IMG/VR virus record: IMGVR_UViG_2671180439_000002
Span: 1-4,910 of that record
Length of the DNA: 4,910 nt
DNA from: a virus
Lineage: Duplodnaviria > Heunggongvirae > Uroviricota > Caudoviricetes
Direction: 5' to 3' (one strand)
Shown here piece by piece: positions 1 to 4,910 of the stretch. Under the pieces are notes generated by a model that had not been told where the DNA came from, searched no databases, and worked only from the letters and a program-made list of their open reading frames with translations. Every line of letters begins with the position of its first letter. The stretch's first letter is position 1. A program made the translations under genes and the position numbers.

Positions 1-267
1 TGTTCAGCAGATTATCAGGCGCAACTGAAGCGGCATAATCTGCGTGGAAGTATGAGCGCAAAAGGTTGCTGCTACGATAATGCCTGCGTGGAAAGCTTCT
101 TTCATTCGCTGAAAGTGGAATGTATCCATGGAGAACACTTTATCAGCCGGGAAATAATGCGGGCAACGGTGTTTAATTATATCGAATGTGATTACAATCG
201 GTGGCGGCGGCACAGTTGGTGTGGCGGCCTCAGTCCGGAACAATTTGAAAACAAGAACCTCGCTTAG
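1..267 (+). CDS. insF: IS3 transposase OrfB (InsF-type, DDE integrase domain), C-terminal fragment; 5' end outside the window
   Basis: The reading frame is open from nt 1 with no stop until TAG at 265-267; the track ORF 52..267 is the same frame from an internal Met. The C-terminal motif ...[24 protein letters not shown] is characteristic of IS3 OrfB. Confidence 0.85.
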
Positions 268-297
268 GCCTGTGTCCATATTACGTGGGTAGGATCA
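259..297 (+). repeat. IS3 right terminal inverted repeat (IRR), approximate extent
   Basis: The last ~39 bp of the element end in ...CCATATTACGTGGGTAGGATCA at 297, the reverse complement of the TGATCCTACCCACG... type IS3 terminus. The left IR is not in the window, so the extent is from memory of IS3 only. Confidence 0.55.
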
Positions 298-507
298 GTT
301 CAATGTGATTTTTAAGACGTACTTTGAAGTTTTCCATGCATCCTCCATGCAAAGTGAAAACCTGCTGTTAAATCAAAGCAAGTCACAATCCCGGATAGGC
401 TTCATACAAGCCAATCCCCCACAGGGATTGAGTTATGCAAGCGAATCAATCTCAGAGCTTTTAACATGTATGGAGCTTAGAGATATTGTCCGTTAGACCA
501 TATAAGC

Positions 508-984
508 TTAAGCTCTGGCTTTCGTTTGTTTTTTTCCATCTTCCTCCTGCTCTGCCCATCTCCTTATCTTCATCTCTAATGAGTCTAAATATGCTTTAGC
601 ATCGCTATCTACCCAGCCAGGTATACGCTGTCCTTGCTCTAAGAGGACAAAATCAATGATAGCCTTTTTTTCTCTCGAAGCCTTATTATAGAGCTCGTCA
701 ATAGAACCATTTTTAACTATGGGATCTGTTGCGGGCTCACATGTATCAGTTAGCGGGTATCCCTTTAGTCCCCAGTGCTCGGGGCCCACAACATCAGAAA
801 AGTAGTTCCAAAGCTCTGGTAGCTTCTCTTTCGATATGGAGCCTTTATTGATCCAGTCATGGATTGATGGGGGTTTTATTTTGAAATGACGTGCGATTTC
901 CGCCTTACTCTTGGCAGAACCTATTGAAAGCTTCTTGTCTATGGCCTGCTCGATCGCTCGGCCCAATTCTTTACCACTAAGCAT
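508..984 (-). CDS. racR: RacR-like prophage repressor, 158 aa, N-terminal HTH and no S24 peptidase domain
   Basis: ATG at 982-984 (complement) with a GAGGA Shine-Dalgarno upstream; stop TAA at 508-510. The N-terminus carries a CI/XRE-like helix-turn-helix (SKAEIARHFKIKPPSIHDWINKG). It is transcribed divergently from a Cro-like and a CII-like gene, matching the racR-ydaS-ydaT arrangement of the E. coli Rac prophage, and has the same length as K-12 RacR (from memory). Confidence 0.7.
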   Translation of the reverse strand: MLSGKELGRAIEQAIDKKLSIGSAKSKAEIARHFKIKPPSIHDWINKGSISKEKLPELWNYFSDVVGPEHWGLKGYPLTDTCEPATDPIVKNGSIDELYNKASREKKAIIDFVLLEQGQRIPGWVDSDAKAYLDSLEMKIRRWAEQEEDGKKQTKARA

Positions 985-1085
985 TGCCTAATAATCCTCA
1001 TAACCTATAGCTTAGGCAATTCCTATTGATTGTTTATTAGGCTTAGCCTAATATCTGCTTGTGTGGAAATCATAGGAATCCGTTT
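985..1085. promoter_or_regulatory. Divergent promoter/operator region between the repressor gene and the cro-like gene
   Basis: A 101-bp AT-rich intergenic region between divergent start codons. Candidate rightward promoter: -35 TTGATT (1026-1031), 17-bp spacer, -10 TAATAT (1049-1054). The 8-mer GCCTAATA or its complement occurs three times (986-993, 1035-1042, 1046-1053). A second inverted pair is AATTCCTAT (1018-1026) and ATAGGAATC (1072-1080). Confidence 0.5.
1035..1053. promoter_or_regulatory. Candidate operator: perfect 8-3-8 inverted repeat TATTAGGC-tta-GCCTAATA
   Basis: The two arms are exact reverse complements in the sequence. The repeat lies in the spacer and -10 of the putative rightward promoter, where a repressor operator would be expected. 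Confidence 0.5.
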
Positions 1086-1349
1086 ATGAGAAGTAGCCTT
1101 GAAGCAATCAGTGAAGCCTGCCGCATTGTTGGGGGACAAGCCGCTTTGTCAAGGAATCTAGGCATCTCATCACCAACAGTGAATCAATGGACAACGGGCA
1201 TTAGGCAAATACCTGCGGAACGATGTCCTGCGATTGAGAAAGCTACTGGTGGTGCTGTCACCTGCGAAGAGCTTCGTCCTGACATTGACTGGGCCTATTT
1301 AAGAGGTGCAGCAATGCGAAAGCTTAATGTCACTGCATCAAATTTGTAA
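1086..1349 (+). CDS. ydaS: Cro-like HTH regulator of the YdaS family, 87 aa from ATG 1086
   Basis: ATG at 1086 is preceded by AGGA (1074-1077); the track ORF begins at an upstream TTG (1059) with no Shine-Dalgarno, so 1086 is preferred. The motif GGQAALSRNLGISSPTVNQWTTGIRQIPAERCPAIEKATGG is typical of YdaS/Cro-like prophage proteins. Stop TAA at 1347-1349. Confidence 0.7.
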   Translation: MRSSLEAISEACRIVGGQAALSRNLGISSPTVNQWTTGIRQIPAERCPAIEKATGGAVTCEELRPDIDWAYLRGAAMRKLNVTASNL

Positions 1350-1377
1350 CTACCACCCGAGTTTGAAAGGAGTAGGT

Positions 1378-1830
1378 ATGAACCTCAAAGAAGTCGTGAA
1401 ATCTATGTGCAAAGCATATCCAGGTGGGCGCGAAGCAATGGCTGGCGCACTGGGAATGACGGTGACGCAGTTTAACAACAACCTTTACGAGAAAAACGGC
1501 TGTCGTTTCTTCGAAGTCAGCGAACTGGAAGCGATGGAGGACATCTCGAATACATCTCACCTGGCTGAATATTTTGCCCGCCGTCGTGGTGCTCTGCTGG
1601 TGGATGTTCCGCACCTGGAAGAACTGGACCGCGTGGACTTGTTTAGCCGGGCAATGCGTACCTCTGCCGCCAGGGGGCAGGTTGATCAGATTATCGAACA
1701 GGCGCTTGAAGATGGCGTTATTGAAAGGCACGAGGCCGAAGAAATCATGGTGCATCACCGCCGTCACCTGGCAGCTCGTGAAGAAGAGATTGCCGCAATC
1801 ATCACGCTTTTTTCACGCAAAAAGAAGTGA
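1378..1830 (+). CDS. CII-like / YdaT-like prophage regulatory protein, 150 aa
   Basis: ATG at 1378 follows a strong Shine-Dalgarno AAGGAG (1367-1372) with 5-nt spacing; the track ORF from 1306 overlaps the upstream gene and lacks an SD. It sits immediately after the cro-like gene as cII does in lambdoid switches. The N-terminal region (GGREAMAGALGMTVTQFNNNLYEKNG) is HTH-like; the C-terminus is helical and charged. Stop TGA at 1828-1830. Confidence 0.65.
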   Translation: MNLKEVVKSMCKAYPGGREAMAGALGMTVTQFNNNLYEKNGCRFFEVSELEAMEDISNTSHLAEYFARRRGALLVDVPHLEELDRVDLFSRAMRTSAARGQVDQIIEQALEDGVIERHEAEEIMVHHRRHLAAREEEIAAIITLFSRKKK

Positions 1831-1858
1831 CGCCAGCGAGTTGCAGCTCCTGGCGTCG
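1828..1858 (+). other. Stem-loop between the CII-like gene and dam; no U-tract
   Basis: GACGCCAG (1829-1836) pairs with CTGGCGTC (1850-1857), with an inner GAG/CTC pair (1838-1840 with 1847-1849). It overlaps the stop of the upstream gene and the GTG at 1858. No T-run follows, so it is not a canonical intrinsic terminator. Confidence 0.3.
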
Positions 1859-2697
1859 TGGCGTGTCGTTATCAGTGGAGATTACTAACGCATGAACAGT
1901 TTATCAACACAATACCGCAGGTCGCAACTTGTAGCGCGGCCAGTTCCTGGTGGAGCAGGGCCGGTGCAGTTCGTGTAGAGCCATTCGTTGGTGGTGGGTC
2001 GGTATTCCTGAACAGCGAAAAGCACGCAGATTACCTGCTGGCGGACGTTAACCCGGACCTGATTAATCTGTATCAGATGTTAGCGGTCGTGCCGGATGAA
2101 GTGGAATTGAAGGCCCGCTGGATGTTCGAGCACATGCGGTCACCAGAGCGCTATGAGCTGATCCGTTCCGAGTTCAACTCTCAGACGCTGGATGCTACTG
2201 AACGCGCAGCTGCATTCCTGTATCTCAACCGGCATTGCTTCAATGGTCTGATGCGCTACAACCAGGCGAACAAGTTCAATGTGGGCTGGGGAGGCTACAA
2301 GGCTCCGTATTACCCGATGGATGAGATGAAAGCCTTCGCGGCTATGGCGCATAACTGCGTATTCATGACGGCTGATTACCGCCGGACAATCAGCCTGGCC
2401 GGGAAAGGGGATGTGGTTTACTGCGATCCGCCTTACGAACCGATGCCGGGAACAACCGGATTCACCGCCTACGCCGCTGGTGGTTTTAACTGGGAGAACC
2501 AGGTAGACCTGGCGAAGCAATGCGTATCAGCCTTTCACCGTGGGGCTCGGGTAGTGATTTCTAACTCATCTGCACCGAAGGTTCTCGACCTGTACCGGGA
2601 GCATGGTTTTAACCTGCAATTCATCAACGCGCGCCGTTCGATCTCCTGCAAAAGCAGTACGCGGGAAGTCGCAAAAGACGTTGTAGCGATCCTTTAA
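1858..2697 (+). CDS. dam: Dam-family N6-adenine DNA methyltransferase (prophage-borne); 5' end uncertain, possibly frameshifted
   Basis: From ~nt 1973 the translation aligns well with E. coli Dam: VEPFVGGGSVFLN (AdoMet motif I), AFLYLNR, and the catalytic DPPY motif in VVYCDPPYEP. The track start is a GTG (1858) without a Shine-Dalgarno, and the conserved N-terminal KWAGGK-type motif is absent in this frame. An SD-preceded ATG at 1892 is in the +2 frame and hits a stop at 1976-1978. Stop TAA at 2695-2697. Confidence 0.75.
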   Translation: MACRYQWRLLTHEQFINTIPQVATCSAASSWWSRAGAVRVEPFVGGGSVFLNSEKHADYLLADVNPDLINLYQMLAVVPDEVELKARWMFEHMRSPERYELIRSEFNSQTLDATERAAAFLYLNRHCFNGLMRYNQANKFNVGWGGYKAPYYPMDEMKAFAAMAHNCVFMTADYRRTISLAGKGDVVYCDPPYEPMPGTTGFTAYAAGGFNWENQVDLAKQCVSAFHRGARVVISNSSAPKVLDLYREHGFNLQFINARRSISCKSSTREVAKDVVAIL

Positions 2698-2706
2698 GGG
2701 GGCTAA

Positions 2707-3549
2707 ATGAAACTGACTTTACCATTTCCACCGAGCGTAAATAGTTACTGGCGCGCCCCGAGCAAGGGACCGCTGAAAGGCAGGCATCTGGTAAGCGAGA
2801 CAGGGCGCAAGTTCCAGCAGGCAGCGAGAGCGGCGATTATTGAGCAACTGCGGGCCGTTCCCCGGCCATCCTCAGATCTGGCCGAGGTTCACATAAACGT
2901 TGTTGAGGGCGCGGGGCTTGAGCTTGATCCTGATGATGATTCACAGGTTCTTAAAGCGATTGGTGGCGGTCGCCTGCTTAATATTGTCACCTTTACTAAG
3001 TCAGGGACTTACACTCCAACTAAAGGGACGAAAAGAGTGCGGGTGAAAGTTTGGGGAGCGGGGGGAGGTGGCCAGAATGCTCCAGTTAGTGTGGGCGCAT
3101 CTGGAGGTTGTGCTGGTGGATTTTCGGAAGGGTTATTTAATATTTCTGATAACGAAACTATATCTGTGACGATAGGTACTGGTGGCAGTGCTGTTGCTGC
3201 TGGTGTCTCGTCTAAAGGCGGGAATGGTGGTGATACAAGGTTCGGGAGTTTAATCTCAGCTACTGGAGGGAGTGGTGGCGGGGCTACAGTTCCTGCTGGA
3301 GGTATCGGAAGTGGCGGGAACATTTTAAATATTACTGGCGGAATATCTCAAGGTGGTCTGTATTATGGTTCTGATGCTTTTATTGGCGGGGCTGGAGGAT
3401 CTGCATTTTCATCAACGGGTGGCAATGGCCACTTCGGTAGTTCTGGCGATGATGGCGGTTTCCCCGGCTCAGGTGGTGCCGGGGGGAATGGTAACTATTC
3501 ATCAGGAAAAGGAGCGAATGGTTTAGTTTACCTTGAAGAGTTTTCCTGA
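2707..3549 (+). CDS. Chimeric ORF: RusA-like N-terminus (about aa 1-85) fused in frame to a glycine-rich tail-fibre-type domain (about aa 95-280)
   Basis: ATG at 2707 follows AAGGGGG. The N-terminus (LTLPFPPSVNSYWR ... LELDPDDDSQVLKA) resembles RusA (LPWPPSNNRYYR ... DLDNLQKA), but the downstream catalytic Asp region is missing. From ~nt 2975 the ORF is glycine-rich (TYTPTKGTKRVRVKVWGAGGGG ... GANGLVYLEEF), like phage tail-fibre glycine-rich domains. Codon usage becomes A/T-rich at third positions after the junction. Stop TGA at 3547-3549. Confidence 0.6.
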   Translation: MKLTLPFPPSVNSYWRAPSKGPLKGRHLVSETGRKFQQAARAAIIEQLRAVPRPSSDLAEVHINVVEGAGLELDPDDDSQVLKAIGGGRLLNIVTFTKSGTYTPTKGTKRVRVKVWGAGGGGQNAPVSVGASGGCAGGFSEGLFNISDNETISVTIGTGGSAVAAGVSSKGGNGGDTRFGSLISATGGSGGGATVPAGGIGSGGNILNITGGISQGGLYYGSDAFIGGAGGSAFSSTGGNGHFGSSGDDGGFPGSGGAGGNGNYSSGKGANGLVYLEEFS

Positions 3550-4619
3550 TTATTTTTGCTTTGAGCGTCCGCCCTTATTTTTGCTCTAATTTTAATTAGT
3601 GGCTTGTCTATTAATATTACACAAACGATCCCAAGTGCAATTGATATTGGGTAGCCTAATAAAAAGATGGATAAGCCACGATTTTCACCACCAATAGCAA
3701 GCCATGCTAGAAATCCACCAAAATATTGACAAAGAAAAATTGGATAGGCCAGGTCACCAAACCACTTGAGTATTTTCTCAAGATGTATGTTTGTCTTTAT
3801 TTTTAATAATACCAGGGTTGTAAACAATGCTATTACATTATTGGTGTAGTAAAGTATTATGTTGTACTGACCTAATGGATTAATTGTATATAAATGCCAA
3901 TTGGTAATAAAAATCCCGATGCAAATAAATGTTATTAAAAAAGCTTTGTGTGGAGAAAGATACATAGCTTTGAACTTTCTATGGGCAAAATAACCCAGAG
4001 AACCCATGCTAAAAGGAAGTGTTGCAGCAAGGAATGGGAAATACGCCATATCAAAAGAATGGTGTACTACATATACGTAAGCATGATAAAGCAGTGAAAG
4101 CAGAATCGACGTAATGGCTGTAAATTTATTTCGGGCTATGAAAAGCCACAATAAAAAATAACATGTTATCTCAACACCCACTGACCATGATGATGTGACT
4201 ATTCTGAATCTATTACCATCAATAGCAAAGTGATAAATGGATGAAAAGGCACCGAATGGATTTGCTACAGCATTATCAGAAAGGAAAGCCCAGGGGAAGA
4301 TTAAGAGGTTTCCTAATAAATCTCCAGGTAAGAAATTGCCTGTCCAGTTTGAGTGGAATTCCTTTGCGGATGGAATTAATTTTATAATAAGAAAGCCCAT
4401 GACGAGAAAAAATATATATGCCGGGAATAACCTCAGTATTCTATTTTTCCAAAACATAGAGAAGTTGAACTTGTATGTTTCATGCAAAATGTATGTTATT
4501 AAAAAACCACTAATAACATAGAAGCAATTCACTGCAAAGTTGCCAAGTGCAGGTATGCGAGCCGTTAAGTGAAAAGCAATGACGCACGATGCCAAAAAAA
4601 ACCTTATTAGGCCAAGCAT
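3528..4619 (-). CDS. Acyltransferase family 3 integral membrane protein, 363 aa; putative O-antigen/polysaccharide O-acetyltransferase (Oac/OafA-like moron)
   Basis: Highly hydrophobic with multiple predicted TM helices. The N-terminal VIAFH motif and the FWKNRILRLFPAYIFF motif fit the family consensus (conserved His in TM1; RxxRIxPxY loop). The gene is very AT-rich compared with its flanks. ATG at 4617-4619 (complement), stop TAA at 3528-3530 (complement). Confidence 0.75.
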   Translation of the reverse strand: MLGLIRFFLASCVIAFHLTARIPALGNFAVNCFYVISGFLITYILHETYKFNFSMFWKNRILRLFPAYIFFLVMGFLIIKLIPSAKEFHSNWTGNFLPGDLLGNLLIFPWAFLSDNAVANPFGAFSSIYHFAIDGNRFRIVTSSWSVGVEITCYFLLWLFIARNKFTAITSILLSLLYHAYVYVVHHSFDMAYFPFLAATLPFSMGSLGYFAHRKFKAMYLSPHKAFLITFICIGIFITNWHLYTINPLGQYNIILYYTNNVIALFTTLVLLKIKTNIHLEKILKWFGDLAYPIFLCQYFGGFLAWLAIGGENRGLSIFLLGYPISIALGIVCVILIDKPLIKIRAKIRADAQSKNNQENSSR

Positions 4620-4906
4620 TATTTTATCTCCGCGCCAATATCGCGCATTTTATTTATTACATTGTTAAGTTGCTCATCAGACAGAACAAGCTGAGCTGCA
4701 ATATAAAACAGTATGTGTCTTGACATTACCCTGGGGCTCTCTCCGCCAGTGTATTTCCGCCATTGGCTATCGCTGGCTACACCTGCGAGCCCTGCCATTT
4801 GGTTTCCGGAGTAATTTAGTGCGGATTTCAGTCTGGCTAAATCTTCCTGCGTTGGAGGGGTGTATTTATTTATTAAAATCATTCTCTTATTTAACCGTTT
4901 AAACAC
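4619..4906 (-). CDS. Small XRE-type HTH protein (HigA/YiaG-like); start uncertain and frame open to the window edge
   Basis: The HTH-like segment LNYSGNQMAGLAGVASDSQWRKYTGGESPRVMSRHILFYIAAQLVL is typical of XRE regulators. Its stop codon TAA (4619-4621, complement) overlaps the acyltransferase ATG as TAATG. The track start at 4904-4906 is a GTG and the next codon upstream is not a stop, so the true start may be the ATG at 4880-4882 or lie beyond the window. Confidence 0.5.
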   Translation of the reverse strand: MFKRLNKRMILINKYTPPTQEDLARLKSALNYSGNQMAGLAGVASDSQWRKYTGGESPRVMSRHILFYIAAQLVLSDEQLNNVINKMRDIGAEIK

Positions 4907-4910
4907 GTAA

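Follow-up and report, generated by a model that had tools for sequence, protein, structure and literature searches.

Why does a prophage that has lost its replication, antitermination, lysis and head genes keep what looks like a complete immunity switch? The question is raised by the 4,910-nt stretch analysed here (positions 1 to 4,910 of IMG/VR virus record IMGVR_UViG_2671180439_000002; this whole stretch is called the window below), in which a RacR-type repressor gene, its predicted operators and two regulator genes lie next to the remains of dam, rusA and a tail gene. We give a probability of about 0.72 to the reading that the remnant collapsed recently and has been inherited vertically; the switch would be intact because the remnant is young, and no special force would be needed to retain it. 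Features were identified by reading the sequence and its open reading frames (ORFs) and by scans of Pfam, NCBIfam and PHROGs. The gene order is racR, three RacR operators, a ydaS-like cro gene, a CII-like gene, a ymfM-like stump, a truncated dam, a rusA/tail fusion and an O-acetyltransferase gene. Every element listed in an earlier note on this DNA (repressor, cro-like and cII-like genes, dam, a rusA fragment, a tail-fibre-type fragment and a conversion gene) was found, in the order it gave; the ymfM-like stump and the beginning of a nuclease gene at the left end are additional features that it did not list. The switch and the collapsed region consist of the following features (L numbers denote loci used for comparison).

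508-984, minus strand: racR, RacR-type prophage repressor, 158 aa, intact (NF049929, K-12 RacR, KpF5 repressor)
978-1050: three predicted RacR operators, from a search for TAGGC-n3-GCCTA
978-990: operator O3, TAAGCATTGCCTA, one mismatch, overlapping the racR ATG
1013-1025: operator O2, TAGGCAATTCCTA, one mismatch
1038-1050: operator O1, TAGGCTTAGCCTA, perfect (0 mismatches)
1026-1054, plus strand: putative rightward early promoter TTGATT-17 nt-TAATAT, with O1 overlapping the spacer and the -10 (a reading of the sequence only)
1086-1349, plus strand: ydaS-like gene for a Cro-type helix-turn-helix protein, 87 aa, intact (PF15943, P22_Cro, K-12 YdaS)
1378-1830, plus strand: CII-like regulator of the YmfL/Phage_CP76 family, 150 aa, intact (NF041471, PF06892, phrog_101)
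1892-1978, plus strand: ymfM-like stump of 28 codons, then a TAG created at the junction (first 28 codons of KpF5 L002:7596-7931, 111 aa)
1976-1977: deletion junction 1, 1,282 bp lost relative to KpF5, 2-nt TA microhomology
1978-2697, plus strand: dam, D12-class N6-adenine methyltransferase without its first 29 codons (PF02086, TIGR00571)
2707-2895, plus strand: rusA codons 1-63 of 125, C-terminal half lost (phrog_34 residues 1-63)
2894-2895: deletion junction 2, rusA codon 63 joined in frame to tail-gene codon 45, 2-nt TA microhomology
2896-3549, plus strand: residues 45-261 of a glycine-rich tail (fibre) protein (PF21722 Gly_rich_2, phrog_863, phrog_6202)
2707-3549, plus strand: chimeric ORF of 280 aa, RusA-like at residues 1-63 and glycine-rich tail-fibre-like from about residue 80

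Judged by its relatives, window 298-4910 is the core of a defective lambdoid prophage of about 13.9 kb (length between the attachment, att, repeats) at tRNA-Ser (serU) in E. coli. This 4,613-bp stretch is present at 99.9-100% identity in 10 of 5,426 complete E. coli genomes, and in all ten it lies between tRNA-Ser/int and yodB. The surrounding order is tRNA-Ser (serU), int, parB, the nuclease gene or an insertion sequence (IS), racR and the rest of the stretch up to the acyltransferase gene, a sialate O-acetylesterase gene, a partial tRNA repeat and yodB; mtfA flanks the serU site on the other side. The window itself stops short of the att sites, and the evidence for them comes from the relatives that carry the same 4.6 kb, which have tRNA-Ser and int at the left end and a 78-bp tRNA repeat at the right end. 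The earlier note took the whole of 1-4910 for prophage; this holds for 298-4910, whereas 1-297 is the right end of an IS3. A 280-aa chimeric protein specific to the second junction is encoded on at least 386 contigs, and a one-residue variant of it on 90 more. The remnant is a widespread lineage marker that is vertically inherited.

Both deletions could be mapped to the base. By blastn, window 298-1977 corresponds to 6001-7681 of the Klebsiella phage KpF5 (OR327748, L002) with 96.6% identity, and window 1976-2895 to 8964-9883 of the same phage with 97.7% identity. At junction 1 the ymfM-like gene lost everything after its first 28 codons, dam lost codons 1-29, and the O-type replication gene disappeared entirely. 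At junction 2 the KpF5 match ends at 2895 and the match to E. coli HS starts at 2894. About 23.5 kb are missing there, as judged by the distance from rusA to the tail gene in the XYEH3314 prophage (L026), and these would hold Q and the lysis, head and tail genes. Only the 2-nt TA is shared at either junction, which points to illegitimate recombination. Compared with KpF5, the MLI106K4 prophage and XYEH3314, the remnant has no O, Q, lysis, head or tail genes. The loss of replication, antitermination, lysis and morphogenesis genes that the earlier note had proposed is therefore borne out by 1,282 bp present in KpF5 and about 23 kb present in fuller prophages, and the alignment to related elements that it called for (KpF5, HS, MLI106K4 and XYEH3314 were used) places the scars at 1976/1977 and 2894/2895. 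In the searched collections no phage or prophage has this compact order as its native layout, in agreement with a collapsed prophage.

The truncated genes carry the marks of these events. The dam match covers positions 23-253 of the Pfam profile and 30-265 of TIGR00571, and E. coli Dam (2g1p) aligns only from its residue 28 onward. By alignment to KpF5 Dam, the missing codons encode the conserved FLKWAGGK motif, and the truncated Dam is probably inactive. The dam gene had been listed without qualification; it is present (PF02086) but lacks its first 29 codons. RefSeq/PGAP annotates it as an intact 264-aa DNA adenine methylase at 1903-2697 with a non-canonical ATC start, and other gene callers begin it at GTG 1858 to give 279 aa; these starts hide the deletion of the conserved N-terminus. 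The RusA part is identical in protein to KpF5 RusA residues 1-63, and 63 of 125 codons are left where a functional enzyme would be a full protein of about 120 aa. The tail part is 100% identical, from residue 45, to the product of a complete 261-aa gene in E. coli HS (L003:19871-20656). Among phages, eight have a glycine-rich tail protein with N-terminal similarity only (36% of the protein or less). The chimera keeps the native rusA ribosome-binding site, is labelled "phage tail protein" in public databases and makes a convenient exact marker of the remnant.

The comparison with the serU element of E. coli HS suggests how the remnant may have arisen. The HS remnant (L003:7750-20656) uses the same att site and shares the same int end, with 99.9% identity (one mismatch), and in the right arm the two agree at 99.95% over 8 kb. 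The truncated int of HS abuts terminase, portal and baseplate genes, after which come the complete tail gene and the same right arm; an additional internal deletion reaches from the gene for the major capsid protein to the tail-tube genes. Late genes thus survive in HS, and the early region, switch included, is entirely gone. HS and XYEH3314 show 98.6-100% identity to window 2894-4910, with the same order of tail gene, acyltransferase gene and 87-aa ORF. XYEH3314 itself is an apparently complete lambdoid-myovirus prophage at the yecE/yecD site with a LexA-type repressor. In the simplest reading, HS and the present remnant would be two alternative deletions of one ancestral mosaic prophage. The ancestor would have been a mosaic lambdoid phage of about 45 kb that integrated at serU in one E. 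coli lineage, with a KpF5-like early region and a late region of the HS/XYEH3314 type (lambda-like head and Mu-like baseplate). One deletion would account for the loss of the ymfM-like and O-type replication genes together with the 5' end of dam; another would have taken out about 23 kb, from the middle of rusA to codon 45 of the last tail gene. IS elements, among them the IS3 in the window, would later have hit the nuclease gene next to racR, and what was left over would be an unaltered RacR-type immunity cassette.

The same junction could also have formed if a KpF5-like phage had integrated in tandem beside an older HS-type serU remnant, and a single deletion had then joined the rusA of the incoming phage to the older remnant's tail gene. 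In favour of this, siphovirus tails are encoded by KpF5 and by the MLI106K4 prophage, a KpF5-like and apparently complete element at the same serU site, whereas the right half of the remnant derives from a myovirus-type late region. The serU integrases are also near-identical across these elements (99.5% over 929 bp between MLI106K4 and HS), and a shared int end therefore does not prove common descent. Against this, the int ends of the remnant and HS agree at 99.9% as compared with 99.5% for MLI106K4; XYEH3314 is a single phage that combines a lambdoid early region (rusA, Q) with exactly this late region and acyltransferase; and e14 of K-12 combines ymfL-ymfM with a J/YmfQ baseplate. We consider such a tandem origin very unlikely and prefer the collapse of a single mosaic prophage.

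Beyond the homology given above, KpF5 has the same gene order as the window except for the deleted 1,282 bp, and an identical RacR protein. It differs in being a complete 38-kb genome with a full ymfM-like gene, O, dam, rusA, DUF968, Q and lysis and virion genes, and it is without the glycine-rich tail gene and the acyltransferase arm of the window. Outside the window (L009:4697-4855 was compared with KpF5 L002:521-2053) the match to KpF5 breaks off at L009 4701, 6 bp within the start of the integrase gene (coding sequence to 4707), and picks up again only about 150 bp later. The KpF5 DUF4224 (excisionase-like) gene beside int has no counterpart in the remnant, and the remnant int encodes 324 aa as compared with 330 aa; excision of the remnant may be impaired for these reasons.

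RacR scores 254 bits against the NCBIfam equivalog NF049929 (cut-off 200); the match spans residues 1-148 of the protein and positions 1-149 of the 150 in the profile. Its identity to K-12 RacR is 56%. With the repressor of KpF5 it agrees at 158 of 158 residues, and the two genes differ by five synonymous changes. When the window was searched for TAGGC-n3-GCCTA, only three sites with one mismatch or less were found, all within the 101-bp racR-ydaS intergenic region, and only one base of this region differs from KpF5. The three predicted operators align with the K-12 operators and fit the footprinted K-12 consensus (T/A)TAGGC-n3-GCCTA(T/A) (PMC9638921), and the racR ATG lies inside O3. The putative promoter at 1026-1054 scores 8/12 against the consensus, which is under the threshold of a generic scan; that scan of promoters and terminators gave three promoter-like sites (2.4 expected from shuffled sequence) and no terminators, and did not list 1026-1054. 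By analogy with K-12, RacR would bind the three operators between racR and the ydaS-like gene and silence the rightward operon, by now reduced to the ydaS-like and ymfL-like genes plus dead remnants. The immunity switch equals the one found in a live phage and looks fully functional; RacR would be expressed in the lysogen and act there as a repressor.

The ydaS-like gene is divergent from racR. Its product matches PF15943 with 104 bits (cut-off 30) at residues 8-71 (profile 1-64 of 65) and P22_Cro with 30 bits; it is 56% identical to K-12 YdaS and identical to the KpF5 copy at 85 of 87 residues. The third gene of the switch follows cro and had been called cII-like and also ydaT-like. The first name fits: the protein scores 205 bits against the NCBIfam YmfL equivalog NF041471 (cut-off 90), 54 bits against PF06892 Phage_CP76 (cut-off 26) and 154 bits against phrog_101, "CII-like transcriptional activator". 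The second name has to be dropped, as BLASTP gave no alignment to K-12 YdaT at E<=100, Pfam YdaT (PF06254) was not matched, and the protein belongs to the YmfL/CP76 family. It is identical to the KpF5 copy at 146 of 150 residues and 24% identical to e14 YmfL; a comparison with solved structures returned nothing significant. None of the three switch genes contains a stop relative to KpF5, the DNA differences are mostly synonymous, and Shine-Dalgarno-like motifs can be read upstream of all three, so that the description of the switch genes as intact with good start signals stands.

A sharp mosaic boundary was seen at 1380/1381. Of 23 phages that match the prophage part, 22 share sequence only from 1381 (the ymfL start) on and carry other repressors upstream; the same holds for 45 E. 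coli genomes, and 298-1380 is common only to KpF5 and the ten collapsed copies. The racR-ydaS cassette moves between elements as one block that does not include the CII-like gene. A cross-species search for RacR loci found three loci only, and two of these are N-terminal fragments (73-75% identity, residues 1-77) at L024:8001-8219 and L025:1268-1498, in metagenome-assembled genomes labelled Alistipes senegalensis and Herbaspirillum frisingense; they are most likely mis-binned enterobacterial prophage DNA.

Is the switch kept because its loss would kill the cell? The earlier note had proposed that it persists as an addiction-like module, such that derepression of the ydaS-like/ymfL-like operon is lethal and racR can be lost only after or together with its partners. 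The proposal draws on K-12, where racR is essential and represses ydaS-ydaT; across 154 genomes ydaS always co-occurs with racR (PMC5700373, PMC5700377). According to Gucwa et al., the toxic K-12 product is YdaT and not YdaS (PMC11014345), and YdaT is absent here. Jobling considers ydaS and ydaT to be ordinary Cro/CII-type regulators and not a toxin-antitoxin pair (PMC5917428); a type II toxin-antitoxin assignment was rejected for this locus on that argument and because the third gene is not YdaT. In e14, induced ymfM causes filamentation and ymfL does not (bioRxiv 10.1101/2020.11.19.390815). The KpF5 ymfM-like protein (111 aa) shares 54% identity with YmfM, the cell-division inhibitor of e14; only 28 codons of its gene are left in the remnant. 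The deletion of the replication gene makes replicative killing impossible. As far as homology tells, the suspects for lethality (YdaT, the ymfM-like gene, the replication and lysis genes) are gone, and the candidates left are the ydaS-like and ymfL-like genes.

The variation among copies bears on the same question. Substitutions were counted in 19 aligned copies over 13.55 kb. Of the 40 distinct ones, a single one lies in the coding sequence of the switch where 3.5 would be expected, a deficit that is not significant (P=0.13). The int, parB, acyltransferase and sialate esterase genes are intact too, and three short intact switch genes are the null expectation; their intactness is no more than chance gives. 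Over the ~13.9 kb of the element, nine disruptive events were counted in 17 copies, so that only about 0.3 hits would be expected by chance in the 477-bp racR. The 101-bp operator/promoter region has two single-copy substitutions as compared with about 0.3 expected by length: A1029G (L021) lies in the -35-like TTGATT of the putative promoter and G1065A (L017) downstream of O1. Further insertions were found in the spacer between the nuclease gene and racR (IS3) and in a right-arm ORF (an IS).

Two independent lesions hit the ydaS-like gene, and in both racR and ymfL are intact. In strain AB66 an ISEc52 insertion splits the gene (L006:9789-11305), and in L027 and L028 the change G1291A gives W69*, whose 68-aa product retains the whole PF15943 domain; W69* came from a search aimed at truncated forms and is ascertainment-biased. 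Inspection of about 40 copies and of 40 cluster members turned up no credible lesion in racR, and in the copies ymfL was never hit either. A 126-aa truncated RacR variant (P0012) was rejected as a natural racR-null: the one contig that carries it belongs to a metagenome assembly and has almost all of its genes split, and the truncation is put down to sequencing error. The order partner first, repressor last is what addiction would produce, and given the numbers the lesion pattern fits chance and youth equally. E. coli HS has lost the whole switch at the same locus; this speaks against indispensability, and it is allowed by an addiction model in that racR went together with its partners. Taken together, we regard addiction-like retention as unlikely, a minority possibility that is neither supported nor refuted by these data and that would extrapolate from K-12 Rac with a key component absent. 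A narrower form of it, in which the RacR/YdaS-like pair, with or without the YmfL-type CII, would alone make the repressor indispensable even without YdaT, YmfM, kil or a replication origin, appears distinctly unlikely. If true, it would describe a minimal portable addiction cassette and would explain immunity regions that outlast decaying prophages; the predicted order of decay is hinted at by the two ydaS lesions with racR intact.

A benefit to the host is another possible reason for retention, either through RacR-mediated superinfection immunity against KpF5-type phages or through cargo (the O-acetyltransferase and the sialate O-acetylesterase), or both. The features of the right arm within the window are the following.

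3528-4619, minus strand: Acyl_transf_3 membrane O-acetyltransferase, 363 aa, intact (PF01757, 57 bits; phrog_3333 "O-acetyltransferase"; phrog_6705 "O-antigen acetylase")
4619-4882, minus strand: 87-aa ORF of phrog_20491 (function unknown); the open frame extends to GTG 4906 (87-95 aa), and the protein is WP_024186701.1 in several genomes

KpF5 and many Klebsiella prophages have essentially the same RacR and operators, and the resident repressor should therefore repress incoming homoimmune genomes. The arm from the acyltransferase gene to attR is 99.95% conserved in switch-retaining and HS-type remnants. The O-acetyltransferase gene belongs to the right-arm cargo (a moron) and is a candidate for conversion through O-antigen modification; it occupies the same place after the tail gene in the XYEH3314 prophage. 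The TAA of the 87-aa ORF overlaps the acyltransferase ATG as TAATG (4617-4621), which suggests translational coupling, and the pair is conserved in XYEH3314 (L026:42217-43571). On the other hand, the KpF5-type racR allele is rare in E. coli (only the ten collapsed copies in 5,426 genomes), the known phages with this allele infect Klebsiella so that the exposure of E. coli to them is uncertain, and the HS lineage manages without the switch. Retention through host benefit is doubtful on this evidence.

We therefore return to recent collapse and vertical inheritance, under which the switch would have persisted neutrally. Two observations weigh against it. No complete ancestor with both the racR allele and the late region was found; all ten genomes with the allele among the 5,426 carry it in the collapsed form. 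And racR took no hit in about 40 copies while the adjoining nuclease gene was inactivated in at least six ways and ydaS twice, a pattern that would also fit selection for racR.

The left end of the window holds the two remaining features.

1-297, plus strand: right end of an IS3 (transposase C-terminus at 52-267; the terminal inverted repeat ends at 297)
298-337, minus strand: first 13 codons (MENFKVRLKNHIE) of an HSDR_N/DUF450 endonuclease gene located downstream of racR (full gene 384 aa), cut by the IS3

The IS3 part matches rve_2/rve_3 and NCBIfam transpos_IS3 (profile positions 305-369 of 369) and is 100% identical to IS3 copies, and prophage homology begins exactly at 298. The IS3/prophage junction of the window had no exact match in a collection of one genome per species, and none in the related loci retrieved. 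The reverse complement of 298-337 is the start of the full nuclease gene at L009:6477-7631 (minus strand), whose 384-aa product matches PF04313 HSDR_N and phrog_4225 "endonuclease". The gene lies directly downstream of racR on the same strand, in a position equivalent to lambda rexAB/sieB. Among 17 aligned copies (the window, L009 and 15 others) it is inactivated in at least six independent ways: by ISKpn26 with a 1,106-bp deletion, by IS1 at two sites, by a 2-bp deletion, by a 1-bp deletion and by the IS3 of the window at codon 13. Either the locus is an IS hot spot, or the repeated loss may point to selection against a nuclease that lysogens express at a cost to themselves. PADLOC defence models gave no match for the nuclease, RacR, the YdaS-like or YmfL-like protein, the acyltransferase or the small ORF.

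Nothing in this decay is surprising to phage geneticists; it is ordinary prophage decay. Its value lies in a clean, base-resolved example of lambdoid collapse (two microhomology deletions and IS hits, with a sister lineage in HS that kept the complementary half), and in a pared-down natural system for the question whether a RacR-type repressor is essential through YdaS, YdaT or something else, from which the K-12 suspects have already been stripped.

The remnant is of a kind already known, with direct precedents in Rac and especially e14 of K-12. Rac and the present remnant are both defective prophages that retain the switch. Rac has the same divergent racR/ydaS arrangement (each protein 56% identical), the same 158-aa repressor architecture and three TAGGC-n3-GCCTA operators with the racR ATG in O3. 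It differs in its third gene (YdaT, here of the YmfL/CP76 type) and in its site (ttcA, here serU). Rac also keeps the replication genes ydaU and ydaV, kilR, recET and stfR, whereas the present element has lost replication and has almost nothing between the switch and the right arm. The e14 element follows the same operon logic of repressor, cro, ymfL, ymfM and replication gene (ymfK / ymfT / ymfL / ymfM in e14), and homologues of two of these were found here (YmfL with 24% identity, and YmfM with 54% for the KpF5 copy). Its repressor is the LexA-like YmfK and not RacR, and it retains the SOS-inducible division inhibitor ymfM intact, of which only the 28-codon stump is left here. The collapse of e14 is alike: a deletion that starts in the replication gene fuses O' to a late gene (O'-terminase', oweE'-aaaE'), and the baseplate, YmfQ and tail-fibre genes survive.

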